DNA of 64,000 bases from an uncultured Anaerobiospirillum sp. (GTDB lineage: Bacteria > Pseudomonadota > Gammaproteobacteria > Enterobacterales > Succinivibrionaceae). A program made the translations under genes and the position numbers. Under the pieces are notes generated by a model. It did not search any database. It saw only the letters and a program-made list of their open reading frames with translations, and was not told where the DNA came from. Shown one piece after another: positions 7,324 to 63,907 of this stretch (the first letter of the stretch is position 1; each line of letters starts with the position of its first letter). The stretch covers positions 6,610-70,609 of the forward strand of contig CALXYZ010000001.1 of NCBI GenBank assembly GCA_944393075.1. Direction: 5' to 3'.

Positions 7324-8139
7324 TTACTCAGCAGCGGCTGGAGCAGCTGCGGCAGCTGGGGCCTCAGAGCCAGCTGGCTTCTTTTGGCCTTGCGCACGAT
7401 CAGAGCGGCCACCACGGCGGTTGTTGCGTGGACCATTGTCATTACGACGGCGGCCCTTGCGATCAGCTGGAGCATTACGCTCTTCAGTCTCTTCTTGGTT
7501 GAGAGGTAATTGACCTAAAACCTCACCCTTGAAGATCCAGACCTTAACACCGATCACACCGTAGGTGGTAACAGCCTCAGATAAGGCGTAGTCGATGTCA
7601 GCACGTAAGGTGTGCAGAGGCACGCGGCCTTCACGCAACCACTCGGAACGAGCGATTTCAGCACCACCTAAACGGCCAGAGACTTCGACCTTGATACCCT
7701 TGGCACCAACACGCATTGCGTTTTGGATAGCCTTCTTCATGGCGCGGCGGAACATGACGCGGCGCTCTAACTGAGAAGCGATAGAGTCGGCGACTAACTT
7801 AGCGTCGAGATCAGGCTTACGAACCTCGCTGATGTTAACCTGAGCAGGAACACCGGCGATCTCGGTAATCTTCTTGCGAAGCTTCTCAACGTCTTCGCCC
7901 TTCTTGCCAATGACGATACCAGGACGAGCAGTGTGAATGGTCACACGGATGCTCTTAGCTGGACGGTCGATGACAATCTTGGATACAGAGGCGTTCTTGA
8001 GCTCTTCAGTTAAGTACTTACGAACTTCAAAATCGCTCTTGATATTAGCTGGGAAATTAGCGGTTGATGCGTACCAGACCGAAGCGTAAGGCTTAGTGAT
8101 ACCAAGTCTTATTCCGATCGGATTAACCTTCTGACCCAT
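7324..8139 (-). CDS. rpsC: 30S ribosomal protein S3 with extended Arg/Gly then Ala/Pro C-terminal tail
   Basis: 271 aa; [24 protein letters not shown] and the KH-domain region match S3. After GEVLGQ there is a 58-aa low-complexity tail ending [17 protein letters not shown]. Confidence 0.96.
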
Positions 8140-30800: not shown

Positions 30801-31372
30801 AGAGAGTTGATATCCTTTTCCGTCATGCTATTTGGGTAAGCAAGGCGATTGTCAGCAGTAAAGTGCAGATATTGGCTAAAGTCGATGGTCTGATGAATAA
30901 GGCAGTAATAAGCAAGCGAGAGCAGCTTGATATTACGCTCTGCCACTGCAAAGTAGCGATTAAACGCTACCAAGAACGGAGTGTTGGCGATAACATGGTC
31001 TAAGACCCAAGTAGCACCAGACTGATAGAACTGCTGCACCTGCATGGAGTTGGCGCGAGCCACACCAGACTTAGGCTTGAAGACAAACTTGTACTCTTTA
31101 GTGGTAGCATGAGTGCCGCTCTCTACAGCTTCACGATAGACATTGTAGGAACGCAGCTCCGGAATAGTCTCTAAGAACTCATCCTTCCACACAACAAGGC
31201 CAGTCTCACCACCACCTAAAATCTTGCCGACTGACTTACGACCTTGGTTCGTGGCTACACGACCTTGGAACTTCTTGACAGTGTAAGGCCACAAATAGGC
31301 GTATTTGTTGGCAACCTTGACCACCTTTAGTGGTGGCAGCTCTGGCAAGTTAGATTGCGACGAGATAGCCAT
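27824..31372 (-). CDS. Large orphan protein (1182 aa) with long acidic and Ser/Gly/Ala low-complexity tracts; possible degenerate IS1634/IS4-type transposase derivative
   Basis: Uninterrupted 3.5-kb ORF. N-terminal KYAYLWPYTVKKFQGRVATNQGRKSVGKILG, then SGATWVLDHV, EVFYAIDGAY, LLIMSAKSG, and C-terminal RASESTFDLMS...ALRMHPTLKQLMRGKNFVLYLTLGLKLMLQ. From memory these resemble, in order, the conserved blocks of IS1634-family DDE transposases. No terminal inverted repeats seen. Confidence 0.5.
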   Translation of the reverse strand: MAISSQSNLPELPPLKVVKVANKYAYLWPYTVKKFQGRVATNQGRKSVGKILGGGETGLVVWKDEFLETIPELRSYNVYREAVESGTHATTKEYKFVFKPKSGVARANSMQVQQFYQSGATWVLDHVIANTPFLVAFNRYFAVAERNIKLLSLAYYCLIHQTIDFSQYLHFTADNRLAYPNSMTEKDINSLLQDISDVDITRYFDTLQGLCARRQSKGEVFYAIDGAYPSNISMRLLSKECSLSTNNSYLDEAIKKQLALLEQSAISGTRGAGAGMTSHAKASVGSQGFSLSRLSRTALALQLKQFAQSQDDRTLLIMSAKSGIPHAFSTYNSSYTSLEDLCGYVKNHGLPQLPQDPNAKANEIGVFGMITGSDGTTLSDVAAFTNDSARTSTMASVSPYFAKSEEDFQQQFHHLSPDPQELQRQAQIALQSLGSISGLGSISSAMISSQDSSKSGNDSMGGEEESRVSSRRISTEPSAGVSASASVSASVDAEDINTDMRSWSGGANNNGQKAPALKTIRSSDLLKGIKASKSDPIKESEVVLLSSRTDRLFASLRHLYQAGDKFMLSLPLEHLVSQYLLRRCEIELTQLKNYNADHHVFVCSFKLIQHYPEYDVSSAADSAWGQGIGSSSNSSSRRGELFTGSTQTALPRKLAADLFVHVVFDLKPLLALRDEALERKELLAQENERDAFEDDDEFLGFARANRLNMPQDQQFWQSDSVVRPCTNEAMQTLMEAKAQQDPEKILSASDFDAIDAIDVLLEEYVSTSKNQRLEHLKQQQQRSFRSTARAAAAYTTPHSASAFADVISDEKLKRPSISEPEFKPVSGAGAVPSSGTGTKSWMSYSSASDEDIDDSFLDVGNDDDDYDDYEEVEDVFSFLRKSDQQDNDIAVDSSHNSSNDKEALGSTGDLLSEEEDDAGDFFDVPDDDFDDDVFGAGAVDSDEASHQLGDGVGSGGIASYEDDFAPIGGHYDKSLVSFDNEDEAADSAFDFGSEALTTRELARLDRHLQQIFASDLASSSGAFKVFISNRLGEVDEVLKAHEFLRASESTFDLMSLDVFKVEQAQINAFALRMHPTLKQLMRGKNFVLYLTLGLKLMLQAAFNFRDQQYGGITLRERLHIKSVPQFLEMLQQVISERQENGYVYHEIDMELRSLLEYLNIPLPNYEPFSDNNNENEVRLSRT

Positions 31373-38644: not shown

Positions 38645-39862
38645 ATGGCGCTCAAACATGTCTTTTTCAATTTGCGCGATAACCTACGCTTTAATTGGGC
38701 TAAGCACAAGTTTGGCTTTATCCCTGAAGGCACCGAGGCTGATTTCCGCTTTGCTGAACTTAAGAAAGTGGTGGTGTTAAAGCTAGACGGCAAGCTTGGT
38801 GATACCGAGGTCATGACCCACTTCTACAGCGCCATGCGCAAGGCTCAGCCGCGTTTGTTGCTCTGTGTAGTCTGCCCACAGCACCTCGTACCTATCTACA
38901 AAGACATTTTAGGCTTTGATCTGGTTCTGACCTCATCGCGCAAGCCAAAAGAAGATGAAATCAAAAAGCTCTGCGCCCAGATCCTCAATGCTGACCCACG
39001 CAGTACTAATGTTGATTTGGTGGTAACTACAGAGCCACGTTTCCGTCCACGTGACTTTATCTTCGATTACTACCTCAAGCCACGATACGTCGCTGGCTGC
39101 GATGTCCGCCTCAAGGGCAGCTCCATCAACCTCTTTTTGTTTGACCCAGACCGCGACACACAGCGCGTCAGCGCATGCTTCTGCGATCTCATGGACAAAG
39201 GTGGCCTCAGCTATGAGCCTATCGCATACGTGCCTTTTGTAACGGAAGAGTCCCTTGCTAAAGCTCGTAGCAGCATCCAAAAAGACCTTGGGTTAGAGCT
39301 TGCAGGCAGTGCTACTAGCGCAGAGCAGCAGAAGCCATTGTCATTGCCATTGCCATTGCCATTGCCATTGCTCATTGGCATCAACCCCTGCGGTGCTCCA
39401 AGTGCACGTCGTTTTACTGTGGAGATGGTGTGCAGCATCATGCAGCACCTACATCAGCAACGACCTGAAACGCGTTTTGTGCTGCTCCTGCCTGAGAGTA
39501 TGGCCGATTTTCGTAATGGCCTAGTGAGCGCTTGGGAGAGTGCAGGCGGTAACACCAATGAAGTGTTGCTCCTGCCAGAGAAGAGCTCGATTATGGACTT
39601 TGCGTCCTATATCCATCTCTTAGATGGCCTGATTACGGTTGATACCGCAGCCGTGCACCTAGCCTGCGCGAGCAAGGTGCCACAGCTTGCCTTCTATTTA
39701 GGCGATGAGCATACCGTAGAGGACAAGCGTTGGGCTCCAGTAAGTCCAGTGGCTCAGGTGGTTCAACCCCATGTGGACATGCTCTCTGACGTCAGCTCTG
39801 AGTCTGTTCTGCCCGTCTGCAGCGAATTTGTCTCTAAACTGAGCTCGCGCGGTCAGTTCTAG
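38645..39862 (+). CDS. Glycosyltransferase family 9-like protein with internal (Pro-Leu)n linker
   Basis: 405 aa; VVVLKLDGKLGDTEVMTHFYSAMRKAQPRLLL (N-terminal GT9-like) and ITVDTAAVHLACASKVPQLAFY (C-terminal GT9-like). PLSLPLPLPLPLLIG lies between the two halves. Confidence 0.6.
   Translation: MALKHVFFNLRDNLRFNWAKHKFGFIPEGTEADFRFAELKKVVVLKLDGKLGDTEVMTHFYSAMRKAQPRLLLCVVCPQHLVPIYKDILGFDLVLTSSRKPKEDEIKKLCAQILNADPRSTNVDLVVTTEPRFRPRDFIFDYYLKPRYVAGCDVRLKGSSINLFLFDPDRDTQRVSACFCDLMDKGGLSYEPIAYVPFVTEESLAKARSSIQKDLGLELAGSATSAEQQKPLSLPLPLPLPLLIGINPCGAPSARRFTVEMVCSIMQHLHQQRPETRFVLLLPESMADFRNGLVSAWESAGGNTNEVLLLPEKSSIMDFASYIHLLDGLITVDTAAVHLACASKVPQLAFYLGDEHTVEDKRWAPVSPVAQVVQPHVDMLSDVSSESVLPVCSEFVSKLSSRGQF
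39335..39377 (+). repeat. Hexanucleotide repeat (Y)CATTG x6-7 inside the GT9-like gene
   Basis: ccattg tcattg ccattg ccattg ccattg ccattg ctcattg, in frame, encoding PLSLPLPLPLPL. Confidence 0.95.
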
Positions 39863-45838: not shown

Positions 45839-47062
45839 CTATCGCAGGAGGTTTGGCGGCAGCAGACCTAGCTGATTGAGCAGGCGCATAACCGGCTCTA
45901 CACCTAAGATGACACAGACAATGACCACCGCGATCACGATGATAAAGCCCATAAAGACCACGGCAAAACGGATAGTACCTTGGGCCTTGATGATCTCTAA
46001 GGTACTAAGCTGTGACAGGATGTGGCTTAGTGGGGTCATCTGCTCTTTTAGACGCTGATAGTCGCCATTGAGGTCAAGGCGGTTAGCTAACTCTTGCGAC
46101 AGATCAAGCGCCAGTCGATTCTTGGGGTCGATGGAGCTGACAAGGTATTCCTTGGTCAAAAAGAGCTCTACACTGTGGTAGAGGAAGGTCAGATCCTTAA
46201 GATTGCGGCGGTAACGACGGCGCAGACGAGCGCTGTTTTGCATCTTGTCACCAAGGATGCGTCCCACCAGCTTGTTAATGCGCTGTAGTGAGTGCTTGTA
46301 ACCTAGAGCCTGACCGATGAGCAAGATCAAAGGCACCATGGTGTTGGCTGTAGCCATGGTTGGTACCAAACCACGAAAGCCGATATAGCGCATAAACTCC
46401 ATACCAACACAGTCAGAGCAGCAGGCAAAGGCGTGATGGCGGATAAAGCCGACACCGCACTGCACTGAGCTACCGCGGATGTAGCGCGAGCAGAGGCTTA
46501 AAAAGAGGTCGTTGACCGAACCAGCCTCCACACTTAGCGTTGGAGACTCTATATAGAAGAGCTCGTAATCAGGAAAGGTCAGCTCACTATCACCGCTGCC
46601 ACCTCCACTAGTTTTGCTCTTAGCTTTGGCCTTGTTGGCCTTGGCTTTAGCGCGCGCCCCCATACTGCGAGCGTTAGTGGTGGAACTGATGGTAAGGTTG
46701 TGCGGCTCTTCGACAAAGATACCCTTTTGCATCGAGACTTCTTCGACGAAGACAAAGATATTGCAAGGGAATGGGCTGTTGTGGAAGAGCTTGAGGAAGT
46801 AGGTTTGGGCAAAGTCGTGGTTAAAGGCCTGATAGCGGCCGTTTTGGTGGCACAGGTCGTAGAAGGTACTGCCACGCAGGAAGTTATCGTCAAAGAGGGA
46901 GATATGCTCGCTCTCTAAGTTGATCTGATCGTACTTACGAAAGTCGTAGGCAGCGGTAGTGACCTTAAAGGCGATGCGATAGAACTTGATACTCGTATTG
47001 GAGTTGACATAGTTGTCGGTGCTTTTGATCTTTCGCAGCGGCTCGCTCATATTGCCTCCCAC
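45839..47062 (-). CDS. Hypothetical protein (407 aa) with C-terminal transmembrane helix
   Basis: Clean ORF. C-terminal FAVVFMGFIIVIAVVIVCVILGV hydrophobic helix, internal KAKANKAKAKSKTSGGGSG tract, Cys-rich segment CGVGFIRHHAFACCSDCVG. No family recognised. Confidence 0.5.
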   Translation of the reverse strand: MGGNMSEPLRKIKSTDNYVNSNTSIKFYRIAFKVTTAAYDFRKYDQINLESEHISLFDDNFLRGSTFYDLCHQNGRYQAFNHDFAQTYFLKLFHNSPFPCNIFVFVEEVSMQKGIFVEEPHNLTISSTTNARSMGARAKAKANKAKAKSKTSGGGSGDSELTFPDYELFYIESPTLSVEAGSVNDLFLSLCSRYIRGSSVQCGVGFIRHHAFACCSDCVGMEFMRYIGFRGLVPTMATANTMVPLILLIGQALGYKHSLQRINKLVGRILGDKMQNSARLRRRYRRNLKDLTFLYHSVELFLTKEYLVSSIDPKNRLALDLSQELANRLDLNGDYQRLKEQMTPLSHILSQLSTLEIIKAQGTIRFAVVFMGFIIVIAVVIVCVILGVEPVMRLLNQLGLLPPNLLR

Positions 47063-47350: not shown

Positions 47351-50300
47351 TCAACGTCGTTGTCGCCACGGCACTGATGCCTCTGTAGCGGCGCCATCGG
47401 CAGCATCGGCTGCGTACACGTCGACAGCCTTGCCGCCGTTAGCGTAGGCGGCGGCCATCATTTGGACTTGAGCCTGAGCTAACTTGTTCTGCTCTTCAAT
47501 GAAGTGCAGGATCTTGTCGGTGTCGATGTTGCGCACGGTGACATCCATCTGATCGAATGGGATCTCGATGTTGTTGTCAGCAAAAATACGCAGCGTCTCG
47601 GTGCTTAAGAAGTCATACACGACCTTACGCTTACCAATCTCGTTGACGTAGAGCTCGCACATGATGGTCACGGCGCTTGGATCTAAGCTCTTTACGTAGA
47701 TTGCTGGGCGGTTCTCACGGTTGAGGTCACGGCAGCGACGAATGATACCGCGCAGCAGATCCTTAGCCTTATTGATATCCGCACCGTAAGCAATACCCAC
47801 AGCAAACTCGATCTTGGTCACGGTACTAGACAGCGACCAGTTGGTCAGGGCTGAGGTGATGAATTGTTTGTTAGGAATCACCACTTCTTTGTTGTCAAAG
47901 GAGATGATCGTGGTAGCACGGATACGAATCTTGTTCACGGTACCGGAGATAGTGTCTAGAGTGACGATATCGCCCACACGCAGCTGGCGTTCAAACAAGA
48001 TGATGATACCGGACACGAAGTTAGCGAAGATCTCCTGCAAGCCAAAGCCTAAGCCCACCGAGAGGGCGGCAACTAACCACTGCAAGTTATCCCAACTAAT
48101 GCCTAACGAACCGGCCGCCAAGATCACAGCTAATGTCGTGATGGCATAGGAGGTAATGAGCTTGACAGTGTAGCCGGCACTCTTAGCATTGCTACCTGAG
48201 CGCAGCATAAAGAGGCGCTCAATAAGCATTGGTAAGTTGCGGTTTAAGACCACAGCCACCATGACAATGATGACGGCTAACAGCACATCGCCTAACGATA
48301 AGGCGGTGGTGACCATCTTGCCATCAACCTCAGTGACGCTCTCATAGAGGTAGATCTCGTCTAAGTAGCTGAGCACACCTGCAAGGTCGTTCCATTGCAG
48401 ATACATAAAGTAGACAAAGACGACCAAGATGATGGCGTTAAAGAGCTTGTAAGCACGGTTATTGACAAGCTCCAAGCGGAAAGAAGATCCACTGCTACCA
48501 CCTGAGCTGCCAGAACCAGATCCTAAGCCCGAACCAGATCCCGAGACGCCACTTCTCTTATTACCAGCAGCGCGGCTATTGCGCTCGCGGTTAGCCGCAG
48601 CAATGGCTCTGTTGTTCATGGCATTGCTGCTGATATTACTGGAGCTAGAGCCAACACCTTGCGCGGCCAAGACCTCTTGCAAGTGCATACGGCGTACTTT
48701 GTCCATGATCTTGATCTCGGCGACGTAGAGAGTTCGACGGAGGGTTTGCGACAAGATCATGTAGGCAAATCCGATGTACAGCGTGAAAGCCACACGGTTG
48801 AGCAGCTGAATCACAGTGTAGTAGTAACCCAAGCACAGCATGAGCGTGATGGTCAGAGGCGTACAAATACCTAAGACTGCTAGGGTACAGGTCATCATGG
48901 TTGGCTGATACTGCTTGAAAGTGCGCCACACGATGATGCCAGCATACACGGTTAAGTAGAGGAAGCCTAAGATCATCAAGAGATAGCCCAAGCTATCGTT
49001 TGGAATCTTGGTTGGCTCTAACTCACGCATGTTGGCGATGGTCAGCATTGGAATACTGACGTACCAGATCTGATCGATAACCTGACGGCTACGGGCAATC
49101 TTGCCTGGAGCAAAGGAGAAGTAGCGCTGTACTACCGAGTTTGGCTCCAAGATGTGGCGCATATAGAGGAAGCAGCCCACATGCAGCGTCAGGTAATAAG
49201 TCAGCATCAGCTGATCTTTGAAATTATCCAAGGTGATAAAGATAAAGATTGAGCCGATGAAAGTGATGACCACCACTGATGGGATGATCATAAACAGGTG
49301 CAAGAACAGCGCACGCACTGTCAGCGTGTAACCATCAGTAGGCTTATCAAGATGCATTGCCAAGCGATTGGCGGTCTTTTTCAGACTTGGGTTGACCTTA
49401 GTGAAGATCAAACCCAAGATCGCTAATGGCAGGAAGATCTTGAGGTAGTTGACGGTGTTTTCGTGGGTGAACAGGTCGTTGCTCAGATACGACTTGATGT
49501 CGTCTACCTGCAAGAGCAAACGTGGCAGCGTGGTTGAGAAGAAGTTAAGACCAATACCGTTGTTGCTGGTAAGCCAGAACAAATGGTCATTGATCATGGT
49601 GCGCACACGTGAGCTCGCCTCGGTCAGATCACCATACTTAGCACGCAAGTCGGTAGCAACGGTCAGGCTATCAGACATAGCGTTGTAGAGCTGATCGTAA
49701 AGGTCGCGGCGTTGGCGCATGATCTGGACGAGCGTCTCGGAGAAAGGAGCTAACTCCGGATCGTCGCGCACCATGTCGTTGACATAGCTCTGTACATCAA
49801 AGATCTGCTCACGGAAGTTGCGTAAATCAAACATCCACAAATTGAGATTTGGGATGAGCTCATCGAGGTTAAAAGAGATGTTGATTTGTGGCAGCTCACC
49901 CTGCTGACGGTTAAGCATGCGCGATAAGATCACACTACCACTAAGATCAGTAAGTTGCTCTTGCAGATTCTGCTCAATTTGGCGGGTGGTGGCTAAAGCG
50001 GCGGTAACCTCCTGCACCTCACGCGTCATTTGCGCATTGTCGTTGAGCAACACTTCGATATGGCGAGCGATTTCTTTGTTGGTATCTGACTCACGCTTAA
50101 CCTGAGGTAAGAACTGGCCACTGACAGCTGCAGCATCAGAGGTCACACCGTCCACAGTAGACGAATCGAGGTTAGCGCTGCCACTCTCACTAGAGCTCCT
50201 AGTAGCCGTGCTCACCCCCAAATTGAAGTCAGTATCGGTAACAGTCAGCTGATTGCTCAGAAGCTCGTCTTGGGCTGCGCGTACCTTTTCTAAGTACTTG

Positions 50301-51460
50301 GAGAGGTAATCCTTATGGAGGTTGTAGATATGCAGTTTGTAGTTAGCGACATCTTGGAACACCGAGATCGAACGCAGCTCAGTTTGCAAAATCTCGTTGT
50401 GCTTTTGCTGCACTGCGATCTCAAACTGCAGCACCATAGTCTCATCACGGAGGGTGTTAGGGCTGTTGAGCAGAGTGTTGATCTTAGAGATACGGGCGTT
50501 GTTAGCCGAGATCAGGTTTTGCGCACGCGATGGTAAGGTCTGGAGCGAGTTGTAGGCCGAAGTGGCATCAGACAACTCGTTTTGCACCTCCAATAACTGG
50601 GCATTGAGCTGATCTAACAAGGCATTGATGCCATCTAAGTTCAGAGGGGTTTCGCTACTTTCGCCACCAGCGCCAATCTCACCACCTGCACTATCCTCAC
50701 TACCTGCACCTGCTGACGCGGCATCTTCACTAACATCATCGGTAGTAATAATCTCTGGTGGCTCTTGGGTATAGGTTTCATTGGCAGCAGCTAAGGCCTG
50801 CTCTAACTCCACAATCAGGTCTTGTGCTTGCTCTTGCTTGCTCTTGATACGGCGCTCTTCTTGGAGCAGATTCTCGTAGCGCGTCACGAGGCTCATACCA
50901 AGCTCAATAGCCTGTAAGGAGCGCTCTTTATCAGCATCAGACAGTTCTTTGTTGGCCTTAATAGCCTCAGAACGGGCATTGAGCTGCTTGCGGTTTAAAA
51001 TCCACTCACTTTGGACACTTTCATCAGGATCTTTGTTGTCTAAAAGTACGGCACTACTATCTTGAGTCAATGAGCCCACATCAGTGACGATATCGGATAG
51101 CACTTCTAAAGGAAGTGATGAACCTCCAGTACCAGTACCAGTGGCGGAGTTGGCAGCATCAGCAGCAGCCTCTCTTTCAGCAGGAGCCGCACCACCAGTA
51201 ATAGAGGTTTCGATAGCCGCGGCAATATCAGCCTCAGCATAAGATTGCTGCCAGGTACCGCTCACAGCCACGACTGCAAGGCACATAAACACGGCCAGCA
51301 GCCATGATAAAGACCGAGAACTAATCGATGATGTAGACGCAGAAGCAACCGCAGTAGCAGTCGTAGACGCAGCCACTGCGGCGTTAGCGCCAACGGCCGT
51401 CTGCGCTGGTAAAGCGCAGGAGGCTAGTGCAGCTTGATGAGCAAAGATAGTCTTGAACAT
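47351..51460 (-). CDS. MscS-family mechanosensitive channel, MscK/MscM-like (large periplasmic coiled-coil N-terminus)
   Basis: ORF is open to 51643. The ATG at 51460 gives MFKTIFAHQAALASCALPAQ (signal-like). Long Q/E/L-rich coiled-coil region, about 10 TM helices, then the MscS core EIFANFVSGIIILFERQLRVGDIVTLDTISGTVNKIRIRATTIISFDNKEVVIPNKQFITSALTNWS. Confidence 0.85.
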   Translation of the reverse strand: MFKTIFAHQAALASCALPAQTAVGANAAVAASTTATAVASASTSSISSRSLSWLLAVFMCLAVVAVSGTWQQSYAEADIAAAIETSITGGAAPAEREAAADAANSATGTGTGGSSLPLEVLSDIVTDVGSLTQDSSAVLLDNKDPDESVQSEWILNRKQLNARSEAIKANKELSDADKERSLQAIELGMSLVTRYENLLQEERRIKSKQEQAQDLIVELEQALAAANETYTQEPPEIITTDDVSEDAASAGAGSEDSAGGEIGAGGESSETPLNLDGINALLDQLNAQLLEVQNELSDATSAYNSLQTLPSRAQNLISANNARISKINTLLNSPNTLRDETMVLQFEIAVQQKHNEILQTELRSISVFQDVANYKLHIYNLHKDYLSKYLEKVRAAQDELLSNQLTVTDTDFNLGVSTATRSSSESGSANLDSSTVDGVTSDAAAVSGQFLPQVKRESDTNKEIARHIEVLLNDNAQMTREVQEVTAALATTRQIEQNLQEQLTDLSGSVILSRMLNRQQGELPQINISFNLDELIPNLNLWMFDLRNFREQIFDVQSYVNDMVRDDPELAPFSETLVQIMRQRRDLYDQLYNAMSDSLTVATDLRAKYGDLTEASSRVRTMINDHLFWLTSNNGIGLNFFSTTLPRLLLQVDDIKSYLSNDLFTHENTVNYLKIFLPLAILGLIFTKVNPSLKKTANRLAMHLDKPTDGYTLTVRALFLHLFMIIPSVVVITFIGSIFIFITLDNFKDQLMLTYYLTLHVGCFLYMRHILEPNSVVQRYFSFAPGKIARSRQVIDQIWYVSIPMLTIANMRELEPTKIPNDSLGYLLMILGFLYLTVYAGIIVWRTFKQYQPTMMTCTLAVLGICTPLTITLMLCLGYYYTVIQLLNRVAFTLYIGFAYMILSQTLRRTLYVAEIKIMDKVRRMHLQEVLAAQGVGSSSSNISSNAMNNRAIAAANRERNSRAAGNKRSGVSGSGSGLGSGSGSSGGSSGSSFRLELVNNRAYKLFNAIILVVFVYFMYLQWNDLAGVLSYLDEIYLYESVTEVDGKMVTTALSLGDVLLAVIIVMVAVVLNRNLPMLIERLFMLRSGSNAKSAGYTVKLITSYAITTLAVILAAGSLGISWDNLQWLVAALSVGLGFGLQEIFANFVSGIIILFERQLRVGDIVTLDTISGTVNKIRIRATTIISFDNKEVVIPNKQFITSALTNWSLSSTVTKIEFAVGIAYGADINKAKDLLRGIIRRCRDLNRENRPAIYVKSLDPSAVTIMCELYVNEIGKRKVVYDFLSTETLRIFADNNIEIPFDQMDVTVRNIDTDKILHFIEEQNKLAQAQVQMMAAAYANGGKAVDVYAADAADGAATEASVPWRQRR

Positions 51461-54141: not shown

Positions 54142-54365
54142 AAGAGCACAGTCCAGTCTTTTCCATCGCGTCGTACCTTTCGTGTGCGACCATAACAATC
54201 AGGATCCAGTGGTGGCTGCCATGCTGCAAGCAGCCACCACAAAATCCTGAGCTGTGCTATCAGCATCAGACTTGCAGACTACAGACTTGCAGGCTTGCAG
54301 GCTTATCCCCTTTCCACTCTTCGCACAGAGGCTGTGCGCTTCTAGGTGTTCTAATTTTGTGTGCA

Positions 54366-54416
54366 CTGTGCTTTGCGCTGTGCTTTGCGCTGTGCTTTGT
54401 GCTGTGCTTTGTGCTG
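54366..54416. repeat. 12-nt tandem repeat CTGTGCTTTG(C/T)G x4.3
   Basis: ctgtgctttgcg ctgtgctttgcg ctgtgctttgtg ctgtgctttgtg ctg, between rho and the ybjD-like gene. Confidence 0.95.
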
Positions 54417-54621
54417 CAAGCACAAAGTCACAATTGTTGCTAGCAAACAGTTTTGTCATAACAGCGCCTGCACCCTAGAGCCTGTGCTTTGCTGAGAGCT
54501 TTTCGCTTACTGATAGCAAAGCCAAAAATGCATTGATCCATTTCAAAGATATAGAACGACGACCGGTTTTCGGCAGCAAATCGTGCTAAGTTGAAAGACG
54601 ATGTTGCGTCAGGAGGTCGAA

Positions 54622-57600
54622 ATGTTCTTACAGCGTGCCGAGATTCAGAACTTCCGAGGAATACGTCATTTAACTGTTGATTTTGAGCGTGATACCACAG
54701 TATTGATTGGTGAAAACGCTTGGGGTAAATCGTCTTTACTGTACGCTTTGTTTGCGATCTTAGGTAAAGGTGAGAATCATCTGTGCACCTTCACCCCAGA
54801 CGATCTCTACATTCCAATTCGCCTCGATTCAGACCTTGAAGGCATTGGCGATGAAGCTAGTGATAGCGATGGAGAGGAGCTCAGTAAGGATAAGGCCCAA
54901 ACATCAGCCACATCTCAAGATGCTGCTCCAAAAGAGCAAGGCACCTCCACTACTGCTGCCCCTACAGTTTCTACTGCCTCCACTGTCTCTACAGCCGAGA
55001 CCGCTTCAGCATCATACGCTTCTGCTGCTACTGCTACTGCTACTGCTACCACTACTACTAATGCTGCTACTACAGAGACAACAGAGACAACAGACACCAC
55101 CAAAGGCGTCACCGTAGAGGGTGTGCTAGAGCCTAGTGCCTCTGAGCAAGAGGCTATTGAGCGCGGCGCCCGTGCTTTAGCTGCCGCTCAGTGCTGTCCA
55201 CCTGCACAGCAGCTACGTCAACTTGAATTCTTAAAGCCGATCAAGGTCATTACCACCCCTGACTATCAGCGCCGTTACTACAGCGTGCCTAATGCTAACG
55301 GTATGGGTCAGGTGATGCACATTGTCGACGTGCCTGTAAGTGAACTCAACGATGAAGAAAAAGCTGCTGCTTTTCCATCGCGTGCTCGCCACAACAAGCA
55401 TAAGAACAAGCACAAGCATGGCAAGCAACCAGCTCATACAGCTCATACAGCTCATACAGCCCATACAGCACAGGTACATCAAACACCTTTTAAAGGTCAG
55501 TCGGTCTCAGTGTCGCTGCGTCCACGTCAGTACACTGAAGCTCTGACCAACTTCCTTGCTGGTACTAGTGCGGCCCCTACCCATCTTGCTAATAGCAAAG
55601 CCCTTAAGAACACAGCAGCCAATGAGATTGCTGCTGCTTTAGCTGACAGCGCGGTTGAGGAGTCCTCAATTTCCAAGTCTTCACAGGCTTCAGCTGCTCT
55701 GCGTGGTATGTCTACCAAAGACATCATGAATGCCGTTGGTGAGTCCTTAGTCGGCAAAAGCGCCAAAGACATCAAGAAGCAAGCGCAGTCCGCTGTCACT
55801 GCCGCAGCAGAGATCACTGCTATCGGTACAAGTAAGGCTAATAGCAACGGCATTGGCAACGGCAATGGTAATGGTAATGGTAATGGCAAGCCTAAGCTCC
55901 ATCATGCAGCGCTCATGCTTGAATCCTTGCGACTGGCTCAACAAGCTGAAGCTCTTTATGAGCAAGGCTTACCTCTTTACTACAATCCATCACGCAGTGA
56001 GCTGATGGAGCGTGCGCAAAACGTCTTAAACGAGAAGGAAGGCTTAGAGCAAGAAGCTGTCGATAGCGCACGTGATGATATGGCCTTCTATGAGAGCGAC
56101 GTCTATAAGGACAAGGCTGAGAGTATCGTTATCGATCTCATTTTCTGTGAGAGTGATTATGGTGTCTTAAACTCGGTACCACGCTTCTCTGGTTTAAAGA
56201 ACGGTAGCTACTTAGGCGAGGATGGACTTTATCGCATCCACTATCGTGTCAGCGCTAAGATGCAGCTGATTGCCTCAAATGAAGCCCCTAATGACAAGAC
56301 TGCCGTTACGGCAGCCACTGCCACTGCTACTGGAGCTAGTGCTGGTGCTAATGCGGGTGCCGATACCGATGCTGACTATGATTCGACTTGCGTTCAAGGT
56401 GAGCACTTTGTGACTTGCCATGAGATCCTTGATGCTAAGGAGCAGCCAATCGAAGATAGCATCGCCAAGCGCATCATTCGTGAGCTCATCATCCTCAACC
56501 CATTACTGCGTATTCGTGACCGTCGAATGCTCAAGCCTCAGATGTATGAGGTAGTAGAGCAAATCGATCACCCAAAGGATGCCGCAAAGGCCCAAGCCAC
56601 AGACCAAGCTAATCTATCAGACACGGCCGTAGATATTGAAGTTGTCGCTACCCCAAATGCCAGTGCTAGTTCTAGTGCTAGTGCTAGTGCCAGCGCTGCT
56701 ACTACCGACAATACAGCTAATACAGCCAATGATGAAGGTGAAGAAGAGCTTGATTTAAAGACCATCTCGCACTTCTTTGCGGATCTGACCTCTGATGAGG
56801 ACTGGACTTCTAAGCAGATCAAAGACGGTATTGATGTGCTCAATACCATTGCCTCGAAGTACCTCGTCAACTACCAGAGTAACAACCTGACGACTACCTA
56901 CCACGTAGATCTTGATGCCATTCAAAGCCGTACCGCACGCGATATTGTGACGCACCCAGTGTCGATCAGTACCCTCAACTCACTTAAGAACGCTCTGACT
57001 GACTCCAAGCCATCAAGAGCTAGGTTCTTGTTGTCGCTGCTTGCTGGTGCCTTCTTGATGTCTAAGGGACAGCGAGAGATCGATGAACAGTCCCGACCAA
57101 TTTTGATTTTGGAAGACTTGGAGAGCCGCTTCCACCCTACTCTGCTGCTTAATCTGTGGGCTATCTTGCAGCTTCTCCCTATCCAAAAGGTGGTGACGAC
57201 CAACTCAGCGCAACTGCTGAGTGCTATGCCAATGAGCAAGATCCGCCGTCTGTGTAAGCAGTACTACGATGTGCGCTGCTACAGCATTCGTGATCGTGCC
57301 TTTAGCCGTGACGACGCCCGTAAGATTGCCTTCCACATCCGCATGAACAGACCAAACACCTTGTTCGCTCGCTGCTGGTTGTTAGTTGAAGGCGAAACCG
57401 AGGTTTGGGTCTTAAACGAAATTGCTGATGTTTTAGGCTTCAACTTAGCTTGCAGTGGTGTGGCTTTAATTGAATTTGCGCAATGCGGTCTCAATCCTCT
57501 GATTAAGCTAGCTAAGCAAATGGGTATCTCCTACCACGTCCTCACCGACGGTGATGACGCAGGACGCCACTATGCGCAAACAGTACGTGACTTCGTGGGC

Positions 57601-58770
57601 AATACCAATCTGCCAGATCACTTGAGCGTTATGCCTCATGTCGATATCGAGCACTATCTCTACACTTCAGGTTTTGCTGACGTGTACCAACGTGCGGCTA
57701 ACATCGCCTTGAAGAATCAGCCAGTGGTCTCTAAGAACAAGCACCAAAAGAGTCCACCACCATTAGATAGCATTGGTAATGAAGACGGCTCTAAGGACAA
57801 GAGTGCAGAAAAGAAATTTGATCGCGTCATTGATGTCGATGTGGCGAGCATCACAGACCTTGCTGATCAGCCAACTAAGTCCAAGAAGGAGAAGAACAAA
57901 GAGAAGGGTCAGGACAAGAATAAGGGTGGCAGCAAGCAAGCTGTGTTAAAGAACCACAGCTTAGATAGCGTCATCAAGAGCGTGCTGCACTACAACTTGG
58001 GCAAGAACGTCCAAGAGCTCTTAAAAGCGGTGAACCGTGGTCGTCTCCAGGGTCAGAGCAAAAAGGCGCAGATCATTGATATCTCACAGCTCTCTAAAGG
58101 TGACGTCTCGGCTTTCTACCACTACGTCCACAATCTCATTATGGAGATGCCACGCCCAAGCCATAACCTGACTAAGCGCCAGAGCCGTATCCTCAATATC
58201 TTAAAGAGCGAGCGTGCCTTACTCTTAGATCAGGTCAACCGCAATGAGCAGCGTCTCAACAAGCAAAATGCGGCCAATGCCGCTGCAGCTGCTGCTGAGA
58301 CTATGGCTAACCTCAACAAGAACAAGGCCAAAGCTGATAAGGACAAGGCCAGCGTCAACGCCAGCACCAGCGCAAGCACTAGCGCCTTTTCCAGAAACGG
58401 CAATAACAACAGCAATGGCAATGGTAGTGGTAGTGGTGGTAAGTCCAAGGTGGAAAAGGCCGATAAGATTGCCAAGATCGATACTAAGAACGCCTCTTCA
58501 GATGACAGCAAAGCAGTAGAGACCGAGCGCCTCAATGGCAAGACCACTAATGCCGCTTTTGGTGCTTGGTCAGATGCTGAGCTTAGTAAGAAGGGAATGT
58601 CGGTCAAGAAGGTGATCGAGGCGGCGATCCACAAGAACACCAAGCCAGGGATGGCGATCTTGGTTAGTGAGGCTATGCATCAGCGTGGCCCTGACTCCGT
58701 ACCGCTGCTCTTTAAGACCATGTTCCGTAAGATCAGACGCTTAGCGCAAAACGAGTTCGGCCTAGAGTAG
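54622..58770 (+). CDS. ybjD: OLD-family ATP-dependent endonuclease homologue (YbjD-like), greatly expanded by insertions
   Basis: The ATG at 54622 is preceded by AGGAGG (54611-54616). N-terminal MFLQRAEIQNFRGIRHLTV...VLIGENAWGKSSLLYAL (ABC/AAA Walker A). C-terminal FHIRMNRPNTLFARCWLLVEGETEVWVLNEIA...IEFAQCGLNPLIKLAKQMGISYHVLTDGDDAGRHY (Toprim). Final KPGMAILVSEAMHQRGPDSVPLLFKTMFRKI. These blocks match my memory of E. coli YbjD (about 550 aa); this ORF is about 1380 aa. Confidence 0.85.
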   Translation: MFLQRAEIQNFRGIRHLTVDFERDTTVLIGENAWGKSSLLYALFAILGKGENHLCTFTPDDLYIPIRLDSDLEGIGDEASDSDGEELSKDKAQTSATSQDAAPKEQGTSTTAAPTVSTASTVSTAETASASYASAATATATATTTTNAATTETTETTDTTKGVTVEGVLEPSASEQEAIERGARALAAAQCCPPAQQLRQLEFLKPIKVITTPDYQRRYYSVPNANGMGQVMHIVDVPVSELNDEEKAAAFPSRARHNKHKNKHKHGKQPAHTAHTAHTAHTAQVHQTPFKGQSVSVSLRPRQYTEALTNFLAGTSAAPTHLANSKALKNTAANEIAAALADSAVEESSISKSSQASAALRGMSTKDIMNAVGESLVGKSAKDIKKQAQSAVTAAAEITAIGTSKANSNGIGNGNGNGNGNGKPKLHHAALMLESLRLAQQAEALYEQGLPLYYNPSRSELMERAQNVLNEKEGLEQEAVDSARDDMAFYESDVYKDKAESIVIDLIFCESDYGVLNSVPRFSGLKNGSYLGEDGLYRIHYRVSAKMQLIASNEAPNDKTAVTAATATATGASAGANAGADTDADYDSTCVQGEHFVTCHEILDAKEQPIEDSIAKRIIRELIILNPLLRIRDRRMLKPQMYEVVEQIDHPKDAAKAQATDQANLSDTAVDIEVVATPNASASSSASASASAATTDNTANTANDEGEEELDLKTISHFFADLTSDEDWTSKQIKDGIDVLNTIASKYLVNYQSNNLTTTYHVDLDAIQSRTARDIVTHPVSISTLNSLKNALTDSKPSRARFLLSLLAGAFLMSKGQREIDEQSRPILILEDLESRFHPTLLLNLWAILQLLPIQKVVTTNSAQLLSAMPMSKIRRLCKQYYDVRCYSIRDRAFSRDDARKIAFHIRMNRPNTLFARCWLLVEGETEVWVLNEIADVLGFNLACSGVALIEFAQCGLNPLIKLAKQMGISYHVLTDGDDAGRHYAQTVRDFVGNTNLPDHLSVMPHVDIEHYLYTSGFADVYQRAANIALKNQPVVSKNKHQKSPPPLDSIGNEDGSKDKSAEKKFDRVIDVDVASITDLADQPTKSKKEKNKEKGQDKNKGGSKQAVLKNHSLDSVIKSVLHYNLGKNVQELLKAVNRGRLQGQSKKAQIIDISQLSKGDVSAFYHYVHNLIMEMPRPSHNLTKRQSRILNILKSERALLLDQVNRNEQRLNKQNAANAAAAAAETMANLNKNKAKADKDKASVNASTSASTSAFSRNGNNNSNGNGSGSGGKSKVEKADKIAKIDTKNASSDDSKAVETERLNGKTTNAAFGAWSDAELSKKGMSVKKVIEAAIHKNTKPGMAILVSEAMHQRGPDSVPLLFKTMFRKIRRLAQNEFGLE

Positions 58771-60384: not shown

Positions 60385-63300
60385 GTGGCTGACAAAAACG
60401 CTATCAAGAGACTAATCTTGATTGACGGCTCATCTTTCTTGTATCGGGCCTATTATGCAGTAAAGCAGAACTTTACGACTAAAGAGGGCATTCCTACTGG
60501 CGCTACCTTTATCATCACGCGCATGTTCCGCAACCTGCTCGACAAGTTCATGGGCGATAAGTTTGTTGTGGTCTTTGATGCTAAAGGCCCATCCTTCCGC
60601 CGCGAAATGTACGCCGAGTACAAGGCCACCCGTCCACCAATGCCTGACGATCTCAGAGCACAAATCGATGCTGTGCACTCTATTACTGAGGCTATGGGCT
60701 TTCCTTTAGTGTCGGTACAAGGTGTAGAGGCCGACGACGTATTGGGATCGTACACCCGCAAAGCCCAAGAGCTCGGTATGGAAGTCATTATCTGCACCGG
60801 CGATAAAGACTTAGCTCAATTAGTGCAACCAGGCGTCTCTATTCTCGATACCATGCGCGACACTATGTTTGACGCGGCTATGGTGCAAGAGAAGTACGGT
60901 GTGCCACCAGAGCATATCGTTGACTTCCTCGCCCTCAAAGGCGACTCCTCCGATAACATCCCCGGCATGAAAGGCGTTGGTGACAAGACTGCTGTCGCTG
61001 TGATCTTGGCCCTAGGTGGTGTCTTTGATATCAAAGAGCACCTCGATAACGTTAAGGATCTCAAATTCCGTGGCGCCTCTACCTTTGCCAAGCGCTTTAT
61101 GGAACAGTGGCCAGAGATTGAGCTGAGTTACCGCCTCGCCACCATCAAATGCGACGTGGAATTGCCTATAGCTATCGAAGACCTCCCATATCCAAAAGAG
61201 GATAACGATACTCTGATCGCCTTATTTGAGCGCTTAGAGTTCCATCGCTTTGCTGCCGAACAACGTGTTCGTAAGTTAGAGCAAGAGGGTAAAGCCGCCT
61301 CTTTATCCGCAACCACAGCGCCCGCCCCTATGGCCGCTGCAGCTTCTGCAGCTGCAGCTCCTACGACCGCGGCCGCTGCCGCTGCTAATACCACGAGCCC
61401 AGCTGAGGCGGGTGCAGTAGATGCTGCAGATGCAGACACTGCTACCAAGAAAGACTCTCCTGCTGCTGAGGACGCTATCTTGATTCCGCAGAAGCTACGT
61501 CGTCGTGGTCGCCCATCCTTAGCCGAAAAGCAGAGCTTACTAATCGCCGCTGGTGCAGCAGCAGCAACTACAGAGACTACTACTGCTGCTACTGATGACG
61601 ACGATCCAGATCCAATTATGGAAGCGCTAGCCGCCAAGAGGCTGCAGGCTGAAGCTGCCACAGCTGCTAAAGCCGCGGATGCAGATGCTAATGCTGATGC
61701 TAATACCGAGGTTCAAACTGGCACCAAAACCCAACCCAGCACCAGCACCAGCACTAAAGGCACTGCTGCATCCAACAAAAAGAGCGGCATGGCTGACATC
61801 TTGGACATCTCCAAGCACCGTAACCACGGTAACGTCAATCAGTACTTGTCTAGCTTTAAAGTGGTCACTACCACTACAGAGCTGCGCGATATGATCCGTG
61901 CCATCAAGGCCGCGCCTTTATTTGCTTTCTACTTAGAGGAGAGCTCCTCTCACACCCCTGATAGCAGCTTGATTGGTGCTGCCTTTAGCTTGGGTGATGG
62001 TGCCTCATACTATGTACCTCTGCGCCATAGCTACATTGGCGTGGATGCGCAATTACCAGCCACCCAAGCCATCAACGCGCTGCGTACTATTTTTGAGAAA
62101 GAAGACCTGCCAAAAGCTTGCTACGACGTCAAGCTCAACCGCTTATACTTGCACTTCTTAGGTATTGAGCTCAAGGGCTATGTAGCCGATCCTCTGATCA
62201 TGGCTCATATCATTGATTCCTCCCGCGCGGGTGAACTTATCAACCTCGCCCAAGACTTCCTAGAGTACGTGCCTCTAAACAAGCAGCACCTTTCCCCCGA
62301 GAAAGTTGTCAGCATTGCTAAGATGGATATAGACATCTTTAAGGACTTTGCATGCGAACAGGCCCTGCTTGCCTATAAGCTCTATGAGGTCTTAATCTCC
62401 AAGATTGCTAACTTAGAGAATGGCAAGACTATACTTGACCACGAAATGCAGGTGCTTGACGTGCTCTTTGATATGGAGAGCATTGGCGCCCTCTTAGATG
62501 GCCGCGTCCTGACCCGCCAAGCCCGACAGCTCAAGGAAGACATGTATTTAGTACAAGAGGATATCTTTGACCTAGCTGGCCACAAATTCAACATCTCCTC
62601 ACCAAAACAGCTCTCTAAGGTGCTGTTTGAGGAACTGGCTATCCCATATCCACGCAAGACCCAGAAGTTTGATAAAAACGGCAACCGATCGTACTCCACC
62701 GCTGATGACGTCTTAAACGAGATTGGCGATGACTACGACATCATCCGCAAGATTCAGCGCTATCGCATGCTCTCTAAGCTAGTATCTACCTACGCTGACA
62801 AGCTGCCATTACTTATTTCGCCACGCACTGGCCGCATCCATACTTGCTTTAACCTAGCAGGCACGGTCACCGGTCGCCTGTCGTCATCTGACCCTAACTT
62901 GCAGAACATCCCTGCGCGTACCAAGGAAGGTAAACAGATCCGTGGCAGCTTTGTTGCACCTGAGGGCTACCACATCGTATCAGCCGACTACTCGCAAATT
63001 GAGTTGCGCTTGATCGCCCACTTCTCTCAGGATCAAAACCTCATTGAGGCTTTCCATCAGCATCAGGACATTCACCGCGTCACTGCCGCCGAGGTCTTAG
63101 GCAAGAACATCGCGGATGTCACTGACGATGAACGTAAACATGCTAAGGCCACCAACTTTGGACTGATGTACGGCATGAGTGCCCATGGTCTCTCGAAGCA
63201 AACCGGCATGAGCTACGCTGATGCCAAGAACTACATTGAGCGCTACTTTGATAAGTACCCTAGCATCAAAGCCATGATGGACAAGGTCATTGCTGAGGCT

Positions 63301-63660
63301 AAGCAGCACGGCTACGTCACCACCTTGCTGGGCAACCGCGTCTTTATCAAGGGCATCAATAGTACCGGCATGGGCCAGCGCACAGCCGAGCGTGCGGCAA
63401 TTAATGCCCCAATGCAGGGTAGTGCTGCCGACATCATTAAAAAGGCCATGGTTGAGGTCAATGCCTATATCAAGACTCTGCCGAAGGACAGCGTCCACAT
63501 GACGCTGCAGGTGCATGACGAACTGGTCTTTGAGGTACGCGATGACCTCGTCGATGAATTCTGCACCAAGGTCAAGGAAATCATGGAGCACGTAGTCTCG
63601 ATCTCCGTGCCACTTGAAGTCGGTATCGGCATTGGCGTCAACTGGGCTGAAGCCCACTAG
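60385..63660 (+). CDS. polA: DNA polymerase I with about 170-aa low-complexity insertion in the 5'-nuclease/Klenow linker
   Basis: GTG start after [24 protein letters not shown] (5'-3' exonuclease). C-terminal [53 protein letters not shown] (family A polymerase motifs A/B/C). Confidence 0.96.
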
Positions 63661-63748: not shown

Positions 63749-63792
63749 CCACTGTCTTTACCCTGTCCACCCACTGTCATTACCCTGTCCAC
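63749..63792. repeat. 22-bp direct tandem repeat x2
   Basis: CCACTGTCTTTACCCTGTCCAC / CCACTGTCATTACCCTGTCCAC (one mismatch), between polA and alaS. Confidence 0.95.
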
Positions 63793-63907
63793 CCGCAAAC
63801 GCTTAATTTTGGCGAGAGAACCGCGAAAAGTTGGCGCTGATTTCGATTTTCGTAGGTATAATTGTGAATTCAGATTTTTGGTTGAATCAAATCAGAGTGC
63901 GCTTTTC

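Follow-up and report, generated by a model that had tools for sequence, protein, structure and literature searches.

How has a compact enzyme of a known nuclease family come to be two and a half times the length of its E. coli counterpart, and what might the added material do? These questions are raised by a gene in a 64,000-nucleotide (nt) stretch of DNA from an uncultured Anaerobiospirillum species (contig CALXYZ010000001.1, positions 6,610 to 70,609), the whole of which is called the window below. A single unbroken open reading frame (ORF) on the + strand, 54601..58770, encodes 1389 amino acids (aa) and, as judged from its sequence, is the Anaerobiospirillum orthologue of YbjD/OldB, a stand-alone (Class 1) member of the DUF2813 subfamily of the OLD family. 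We consider it likely that this gene is an inherited orthologue with a constrained scaffold, enlarged by disordered linkers and by four folded modules that are under selection. The family itself is known, and what is new is the architecture, wherein four insertion sites, ~595 aa of linker and four orphan modules occur together in one genus.

Residue numbers given here are counted from 54601, the start of the longest ORF. The ATG at 54622 is most likely a better start than 54601, because a Shine-Dalgarno sequence lies 5 nt upstream and because, in the alignment, this ATG matches the MYLQ/MFLQ N-termini of all homologues. From this codon the product would be 1382 aa, as against 552 aa for E. coli YbjD, a 2.5-fold difference. 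A first-pass annotation, made without database searches, had proposed both this start and an approximately 2.5-fold expansion, and both hold. The structural model referred to below was predicted by AlphaFold2 on two overlapping pieces of the protein, with clade alignments as input, and its local confidence is given as the predicted local distance difference test (pLDDT) score. The gene and its core segments are as follows.

54612..54616, + strand: Shine-Dalgarno sequence GGAGG, read from the sequence, 5 nt 5' of the probable true start codon at 54622
54622..58770, + strand: ybjD/oldB orthologue, 1382 aa plus stop codon (1389 aa for the longest ORF, from 54601)
54622..54819, + strand: N-terminal lobe of the core ATPase, aa 8-73, matched by AAA_15; pLDDT 82-91
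54709-54735, + strand: Walker A motif GENAWGKSS, from the alignment
56098..56262, + strand: core ATPase strands, aa 500-554, with IVIDLIFCES and GLYRIHYRV, aligned to E. coli YbjD; pLDDT 78-94
56392..56565, + strand: core segment, aa 598-655, LNPLLRIRDRRM, from the alignment and AlphaFold2
56734..57360, + strand: core helical region and C-lobe of the ATPase, aa 712-920, with the best DUF2813 stretch
57100-57117, + strand: Walker B-like ILILED, followed by the H845-P846 motif, from the alignment
57361..57714, + strand: Toprim nuclease domain, aa 921-1038, matched by PF20469 and, in Foldseek, by 6njw and 6nk8
57388-57402 and 57547-57555, + strand: EGETE and DGD, respectively, within the Toprim domain, from the alignment
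58591..58770, + strand: core C-terminal helices, aa 1331-1389, KVI..AIHK.TKPGMAILVSEAM.QRG..SVP, plus stop codon, aligned to the E. coli YbjD C-terminus; pLDDT >90

E. coli K-12 YbjD aligns with the encoded protein from end to end as six core segments in the same order, and every block that the first-pass annotation had quoted as collinear was found in its place. The two domains expected of this family were both matched by profile hidden Markov models (HMMs) above their cut-offs. Specifically, the Pfam model DUF2813 scores 235.6 bits (cut-off 21), with the match broken by the inserts into three stretches of which the best is aa 715-919, and OLD-like TOPRIM (PF20469) matches aa 921-985 with E = 4e-14 and 53.2 bits (cut-off 23.2). 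The N-terminal stretch aa 8-61 is matched by AAA_15 (E = 2e-11), AAA_23 and SMC_N alike. Residues invariant between this protein, E. coli YbjD and other homologues include the Walker A motif (with G42, K43, S44 and S45), an ED-type Walker B (E838 and D839 of ILILED) with its H845-P846 motif, and the Toprim residues E930, E932 and E934 (EGETE), D983 and D985 (DGD), D1015 and E1017. The same holds for the C-terminal helices (KPG.AI...RG..SVP) when the protein is aligned with E. coli YbjD.

The predicted fold is consistent with this assignment. Foldseek matched the model to the OLD protein 6P74 (E = 1.1e-9), to Gabija GajA (8u7i and 8sm3, ~1e-9), to the Eco8 OLD protein (2e-7) and to 6njw and 6nk8, which are C-terminal regions of OLD proteins; the search was run on whole models only, and matches to the Toprim and ATPase domains dominate. 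Against a viral library the same search returned nothing at E < 0.1. In public records the homologues are named only as 'DUF2813 domain-containing protein', and a literature search returned nothing on expansion of YbjD and nothing relevant on Anaerobiospirillum in connection with low complexity.

Where, then, does the extra length reside? The limits of the inserted material were set by an L-INS-i alignment to 12 short orthologues, and they agree to within ~30 nt with the four intervals first proposed by eye (54835-56110, 56280-56385, 56575-56760 and 57715-58600). The inserts and the linkers within them are listed here; the tandem repeats were located with Tandem Repeats Finder (TRF).

54820-56097, + strand: insert I1, aa 74-499, 426 aa
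54820..55137, + strand: I1 linker La, aa 74-179, T/A/S/E-rich with in-frame tandem repeats; pLDDT 24-47
55342..55518, + strand: I1 linker Lb1, aa 248-306, a K/H/N tract and AHT x 4.4 (TRF 55393-55469); pLDDT <50
55561..55890, + strand: I1 linker Lb2, aa 321-430, GN repeats (TRF 55840-55889); mostly pLDDT <50
56263-56391, + strand: insert I2, aa 555-597, 43 aa, A/T/G/D-rich, predicted disordered, in a hairpin loop; pLDDT <50
56566-56733, + strand: insert I3, aa 656-711, 56 aa, A/S/T/N-rich, predicted disordered, carrying an (AS)n repeat; pLDDT <50
57715-58590, + strand: insert I4, aa 1039-1330, 292 aa
57715..57930, + strand: I4 linker Lc, aa 1039-1110, K/S/D-rich, predicted disordered; pLDDT 31-47
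58351..58497, + strand: I4 linker Ld, aa 1251-1299, N/G/S/K-rich, predicted disordered; pLDDT 36-45

Together the four inserts add ~830 aa, of which ~595 (~70%) are low-complexity linker, most of it predicted to be disordered; this linker makes up ~43% of the whole protein. The earlier suggestion that new domains had been grafted onto the scaffold is thus only partly upheld, since it describes the four modules introduced below and not the greater part of the inserted residues. Scores below 50 are found at aa 86-178, 248-303, 324-427 (with three single-residue interruptions), 561-598 (all of I2), 645-713 (all of I3), 1042-1110 and 1253-1298. The linkers are composed of A (19%), S (11%), T (10%), K (9%) and N (7%), among other residues. 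Microsatellite-like repeats had been noticed in the coding sequence on first reading, and TRF confirms them, with periods that are all multiples of 3.

55025-55094, + strand: CTGCTA, CTA and ACAGAGACA units, encoding T/A/E runs, within La
55430-55469, + strand: AHT repeats, 9 nt x 4.4
55840-55889, + strand: GN repeats, 6/12 nt
56658-56690, + strand: AS repeats, 6 nt x 5.5, in I3, where the array was noted to extend to 56730
58422-58437, + strand: 6 nt x 2.7, inside the NGNGSGSGG tract

We compared lengths, and identities to the window protein, across 18 diverse members of the expanded clade. The linkers vary widely: La (scored as aa 74-200) is 39-127 aa long with 17% identity, Lb 19-193 aa with 18%, I2 5-76 aa with 13%, I3 (scored as aa 645-714) 17-188 aa with 14%, Lc (scored as aa 1039-1116) 42-153 aa with 11%, and Ld (scored as aa 1221-1304) 56-222 aa with 16%. 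Across the genus, linker lengths spread 3- to 15-fold at identities of 11-18%. Within sequence clusters, too, protein lengths differ, and the repeat-number variation among alleles that had been anticipated is found.

Four segments within I1 and I4, and one short helix, are of another kind.

55138..55341, + strand: module M1, aa 180-247, two helices then a three-stranded sheet; strands aa 215-245 with pLDDT ~90
55519..55560, + strand: linker-embedded short helix, aa 307-320, RPRQYTEALTNFLA, clade consensus PR....AL..F; pLDDT 89
55891..56097, + strand: module M2, aa 431-499, a three-helix unit leading into the core strand IVIDLIFCE; pLDDT 77-88
57931..58350, + strand: module M3, aa 1111-1250, an orphan helical domain whose last helix has ~58 residues; pLDDT 82-97
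58498..58590, + strand: module M4, aa 1300-1330, ER..G...N..YGAL...ELSK.G.S, with helices continuous with the core C-terminal bundle; pLDDT >90

Two stretches that had seemed foldable from their letters correspond to M1 and M3, both of which are confidently folded by AlphaFold2. In the 18-member comparison, M1, with the motif KVI.TP.YQRRYY.VP...G...HIVD.P., is 41-49 aa long in all 18 (43% identity). M2 spans 44-71 aa and is 59 aa in 12 of the 18 (39%), the conserved part of M3 is 104 aa in 15 of 18 (43%), and M4 is 26 aa in 16 of 18 (43%). The shortest member, of 1046 aa, keeps all four modules and has shrunken linkers. The short helix looks, in the model, like a candidate linear binding motif. 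As a separate observation, an RPPLNF-like motif (RP.LNF) occurs in the I1-site loop of several other Succinivibrionaceae; its similarity to the short helix was seen by eye only, and a systematic test gave no support for it.

Is any of this material under selection? Two sets of alleles bear on this point, both from a single species-level group, which is a sister species of that in the window. The first comprises 33 cluster representatives of 1316-1374 aa. Identity to the reference allele is 89-98% for 32 of them, and one outlier (P0031) stands at 68%. Indels in this set preserve the frame and fall in linkers, with the exceptions of a 2-aa core indel and a C-terminal truncation (two sequences), and lengths differ even within single 90% clusters. 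From the second set, five close alleles (L006 and L085-L088), we computed ratios of nonsynonymous to synonymous substitution rates (dN/dS) by the Nei-Gojobori method, pooled over ten pairs. Core, modules and linkers gave ratios of 0.02, 0.03 and 0.29, respectively. Because the first two values are so close, the modules are as constrained as the catalytic scaffold, and the linkers are approximately ten-fold more relaxed, yet not fully neutral.

These values bear directly on the simplest alternative, in which all of the inserts, M1-M4 included, are functionally irrelevant slippage material that stems from a mutational bias of the genus and is tolerated in the surface loops of a dispensable enzyme. 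The hypervariable length and sequence of the linkers are what this explanation would lead one to expect, and other proteins of the genus (PolA, MscK and S3) also carry low-complexity tracts. Moreover, ybjD is not an essential gene in E. coli, and cells in which it is knocked out show no phage phenotype (PMC13261556). However, this account fits the linkers and not the modules, because the latter combine a dN/dS like that of the catalytic core with near-fixed lengths, in a protein that is only 38-54% identical across the genus, and with confidently predicted folds (pLDDT 77-97). The retention of all four modules by the 1046-aa member as its linkers shrank also argues against it. As an explanation of the whole expansion, we therefore regard neutral growth as quite unlikely.

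A more trivial possibility is that the long ORF reflects mis-assembled repeats, or a decaying gene without a functional product. Repeats of this kind are hard to assemble from short reads, and sequencing error within them had been named at the outset as a possible source of the ORF. However, a second, separate public assembly (ERR4096591) contains the identical product of 1389 aa, which speaks against such an error. Furthermore, a large protein database holds 69 cluster representatives of the expanded form, standing for several hundred members, which are intact at 1046-1494 aa, derive from many samples and include sequences on contigs of several Mb. The frame-preserving indels of close alleles, the core dN/dS and the intact catalytic residues point the same way. 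An artefact or pseudogene is effectively refuted, and we give this explanation almost no weight.

We then asked whether the inserts resemble anything else. A Pfam scan of each insert alone, at E values up to 1, gave no credible match, with results at chance level only, and M3 has no Pfam match. Insertion of an intein or mobile element was ruled out, as no Hint, homing-endonuclease or other recognisable domain turned up in the inserts in these scans. When an M3 profile was compared with 1.84 billion cluster representatives, 12 of the matches proved to be expanded YbjD proteins already known, or fragments compatible with such proteins, and no relative of M3 was found outside the clade among these 1.84e9 representatives. 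Three other matches to the M3 profile (P0194, P0196 and P0197) are unrelated tandem-repeat proteins with scores summed over repeats, and they were rejected. When PDB sequences were searched with the M3 profile, and likewise with the stretch from M1 to M2 (aa 180-499), only chance-level matches came back. We also considered and rejected the idea that M3 is a duplicated core segment, since hhalign assigns a probability of 0.5% to a match between the M3 profile and E. coli YbjD. Finally, M1, M3 and M4 are undetectable in short and intermediate-length orthologues.

The taxonomic distribution of the expansion is narrow. In a taxon-labelled scan of GTDB species genomes, all expanded forms belong to Anaerobiospirillum. 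YbjD is 1046-1494 aa long in this genus, 592-637 aa in other Succinivibrionaceae (Succinivibrio, Ruminobacter, metagenome-assembled genomes and 'Ca. A. merdipullorum'), 539-540 aa in Aeromonas and Tolumonas, and 552-561 aa in Vibrio, Photobacterium, Yersinia and E. coli. The identity range of 38-54% quoted above was measured between the window protein and the 69 representatives over aligned length. A word-indexed search with core aa 788-1038 gave only fragments of 151-437 aa, and no family-wide length distribution was drawn from it. In Succinivibrionaceae proteins of intermediate length, the I1 site is occupied by a 60-83-aa loop, which ends in the element [DE]D..F...DV[FY], as does the C-terminus of M2; this element was found by direct inspection of residues upstream of the strand at which the core is re-entered. 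Because the two endings are the same, we infer that I1 probably grew stepwise from an older, smaller loop of this size.

The surroundings of the gene are equally informative. Upstream on the same strand lies rho, with a gap of ~480 bp to the likely start of ybjD, and mscK is located further upstream; downstream is a convergent yhhQ (Vut_1), followed by polA. The order mscK-rho-ybjD-yhhQ(Vut_1)-polA recurs across Anaerobiospirillum, with identities between the window and other members of the genus of 98% for Rho, 84-90% for YhhQ and 75-84% for the YbjD core, and yhhQ-polA also lies within 6 kb of ybjD in other Succinivibrionaceae. For each Anaerobiospirillum genome that it listed, the scan returned one ybjD locus, and the G+C content of the gene matches that of its flanks. 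Thus, ybjD is apparently a syntenic, single-copy orthologue that has been inherited vertically, and not an island gene.

This setting matters for the proposal that the protein has become an anti-phage system specific to Anaerobiospirillum, with the modules as new sensor or effector domains. Gabija, retrons and P2 Old do all involve OLD-family proteins, and the first-pass annotation had noted that the family includes phage-defence nucleases. In addition, the window protein matches the GajA-type OLD HMMs of PADLOC at up to 2.7e-83, owing to the OLD domains they have in common, and its orphan modules are under selection. The part of the defence framing that stands is what has been published on E. 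coli YbjD/OldB, which gives anti-phage and toxic phenotypes upon induction that need the ATPase domain, do not need the Toprim domain and are independent of RecBC (PMC13261556). Against the proposal, the neighbours are housekeeping genes in a genus-conserved order, the gene has the look of vertical descent without any island signature, and the modules resemble no known sensor or effector in Pfam, PDB, profile or Foldseek searches. In the flanks that were examined, no UvrD/PcrA/Rep-like helicase, GajB, retron reverse transcriptase or other defence gene adjoins ybjD, and identification of the protein as Gabija GajA was rejected because no helicase gene is present there. We judge such a new defence role to be very improbable.

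Some further features of the region upstream of ybjD were recorded. The rho-ybjD intergenic region (54142-54621) contains two tandem arrays, one at 54267-54304 (8 nt x 4.9, CAGACTTG) and another at 54362-54416 (12 nt x 4.6, TGCGCTGTGCTT). The window has ~480 bp of spacer here, where loci L085 and L087 of the sister species have ~230 bp. Scans for promoter and terminator consensus sequences around ybjD were uninformative, with two promoter-like sites, both on the opposite strand, where 5.4 were expected.

If the linkers arose by slippage, is ybjD peculiar in this respect? Among ORFs of at least 200 aa, 37% in the window and 41% at other Anaerobiospirillum loci contain a low-complexity tract (5.8-6.5% of residues, with 5.8% at the latter loci), as compared with 18% in other Succinivibrionaceae (1.4% of residues) and 22% at Enterobacterales and Vibrio loci (1.9%). 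PolA is 1091 aa in the window, 960-1110 aa in the genus and 944-954 aa in other Succinivibrionaceae; the E. coli enzyme has 928 aa. The genus therefore has a general propensity for such tracts, with YbjD as much the most extreme example encountered (2.5-fold, the others reaching 1.2-fold at most), and orphan folded modules turned up in no other protein among those examined.

Other genes of the window give a picture of these tracts in their own right. In polA (60385-63660, + strand), a ~180-aa A/T/D-rich low-complexity linker (~61250-61800) lies between the 5'-nuclease and 3'-5' exonuclease domains, and directly 3' of this gene is a 22-nt tandem repeat (x 2.1, 95% matches, 63749-63794). A homologue of the MscK-type mechanosensitive channel (47351-51460, - strand) has 1369 aa, versus 1113 positions in the NCBIfam MscK model, with tracts near its N-terminus and at aa 937-1001. 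Ribosomal protein S3 (7324-8139, - strand; 271 aa) ends in a low-complexity tail of ~50 aa (aa 221-271). An ORF of 1182 aa (27824-31372, - strand) without a Pfam or NCBIfam match has seven such tracts, including long acidic D/E-rich stretches, and two ORFs of ~400 aa each (45839-47050, - strand, and 38645-39862, + strand) likewise contain tracts and have no match in Pfam or NCBIfam.

Taken together, these observations lead us to favor the following account of an inherited, enlarged YbjD. In OLD proteins, an ATP-binding cassette (ABC)-type ATPase that controls oligomerisation and regulation is coupled to a Toprim nuclease of the two-metal type (PMC6755086). By analogy, the core described here would operate as the rest of the family does, its nuclease gated by oligomerisation under nucleotide control. 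Four surface loops or inter-domain linkers of this scaffold, which is complete and strongly constrained, have been enlarged within Anaerobiospirillum, and the raw material would have come from the general, milder tendency of the genus toward low-complexity lengthening. The linkers would grow and shrink by replication slippage in repeats with periods divisible by three, and their main role would be that of flexible spacers, with almost no limit on their exact sequence. M2 and M4 would extend secondary-structure elements of the core, and M1, the short helix and M3 may be tethered accessory units that provide genus-specific contacts for self-association, partner binding or autoinhibition.

Several considerations weigh against this account. 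The full-length 1382-aa product is predicted from the gene sequence, and the roles given to M1-M4 are read from a structural model. The alignment behind the inserts is shallow, at ~30 clade sequences, and a pLDDT below 50 is a proxy for disorder only. The dN/dS values derive from the sister species group (Ca. A. pullistercoris-like) and not from the species of the window, and the linker value is the less reliable one because repeats align poorly. Lastly, the Aeromonas control for low complexity (51% of ORFs, 7.1% of residues) is confounded, probably by spurious ORFs due to high GC, and was not used as a baseline.

A bolder extension of the same idea is that M1-M4 and the short helix form a genus-specific interaction platform, tethered by the disordered linkers, by which the nuclease is drawn to a nucleic-acid structure or some cellular machine, or which drives self-assembly into higher-order or condensate-like bodies. 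We hold this to be unlikely. If true, a normally compact OLD enzyme would have been turned into a scaffold protein, whose role in Anaerobiospirillum would be new and possibly of a housekeeping nature. More generally, stand-alone (Class 1) OLD proteins are widespread, and the partners of these modules could hint at the cellular role of YbjD-type proteins. The expansion is also a natural experiment, in that the insertion points mark the scaffold surfaces that tolerate or exploit additions. Moreover, it is an unusually clear bacterial case of slippage-driven disordered linkers side by side with fixed, small folded units without detectable ancestry. It does not represent a new type of system, and its bearing is limited to the question of YbjD function.

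Comparison with characterized OLD systems places the protein more precisely. Class 1 OLD proteins stand alone, Class 2 proteins are accompanied by a helicase resembling UvrD/PcrA/Rep, and Class 3 proteins by a retron reverse transcriptase (PMC6755086; PMC13261556). Gabija GajA (Class 2) and the OLD protein of retron Eco8 (Class 3) have a homologous ATPase and Toprim architecture and match in fold. However, each has a partner (the GajB helicase, or a reverse transcriptase with multicopy single-stranded DNA), whereas ybjD in the window is without one and groups with DUF2813/YbjD. The Class 1 OLD protein of Thermus scotoductus (6P74) is the best structural match to the predicted ATPase and Toprim model and has the same domain order, but it is only 12% identical in sequence and has none of the inserts. 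Its template modelling (TM) scores are low (0.22 when normalised to the query and 0.40 to the target), because the inserts and the domain arrangement differ.

The nearest characterized relative is E. coli YbjD/OldB (b0876; Class 1), which is collinear over all of its 552 aa and is matched by the same DUF2813 and OLD-like TOPRIM models. The two proteins have in common GENAWGKSS, the unusual ED Walker B (LLIED/ILILED), EGETE, DGD, the C-terminal helices and a stand-alone gene. In contrast, the E. coli protein lacks the four insertions (426, 43, 56 and 292 aa) and the orphan modules, and its gene is flanked by aqpZ and ybjX in place of rho and yhhQ-polA. Between these extremes are the YbjD proteins of other Succinivibrionaceae (e.g., L009-L014), which lack any counterpart of I2 and of I4, show no more than a short extension close to I3 (in two of them), and carry ~60-100 extra residues as compared with ~830 in the window protein.

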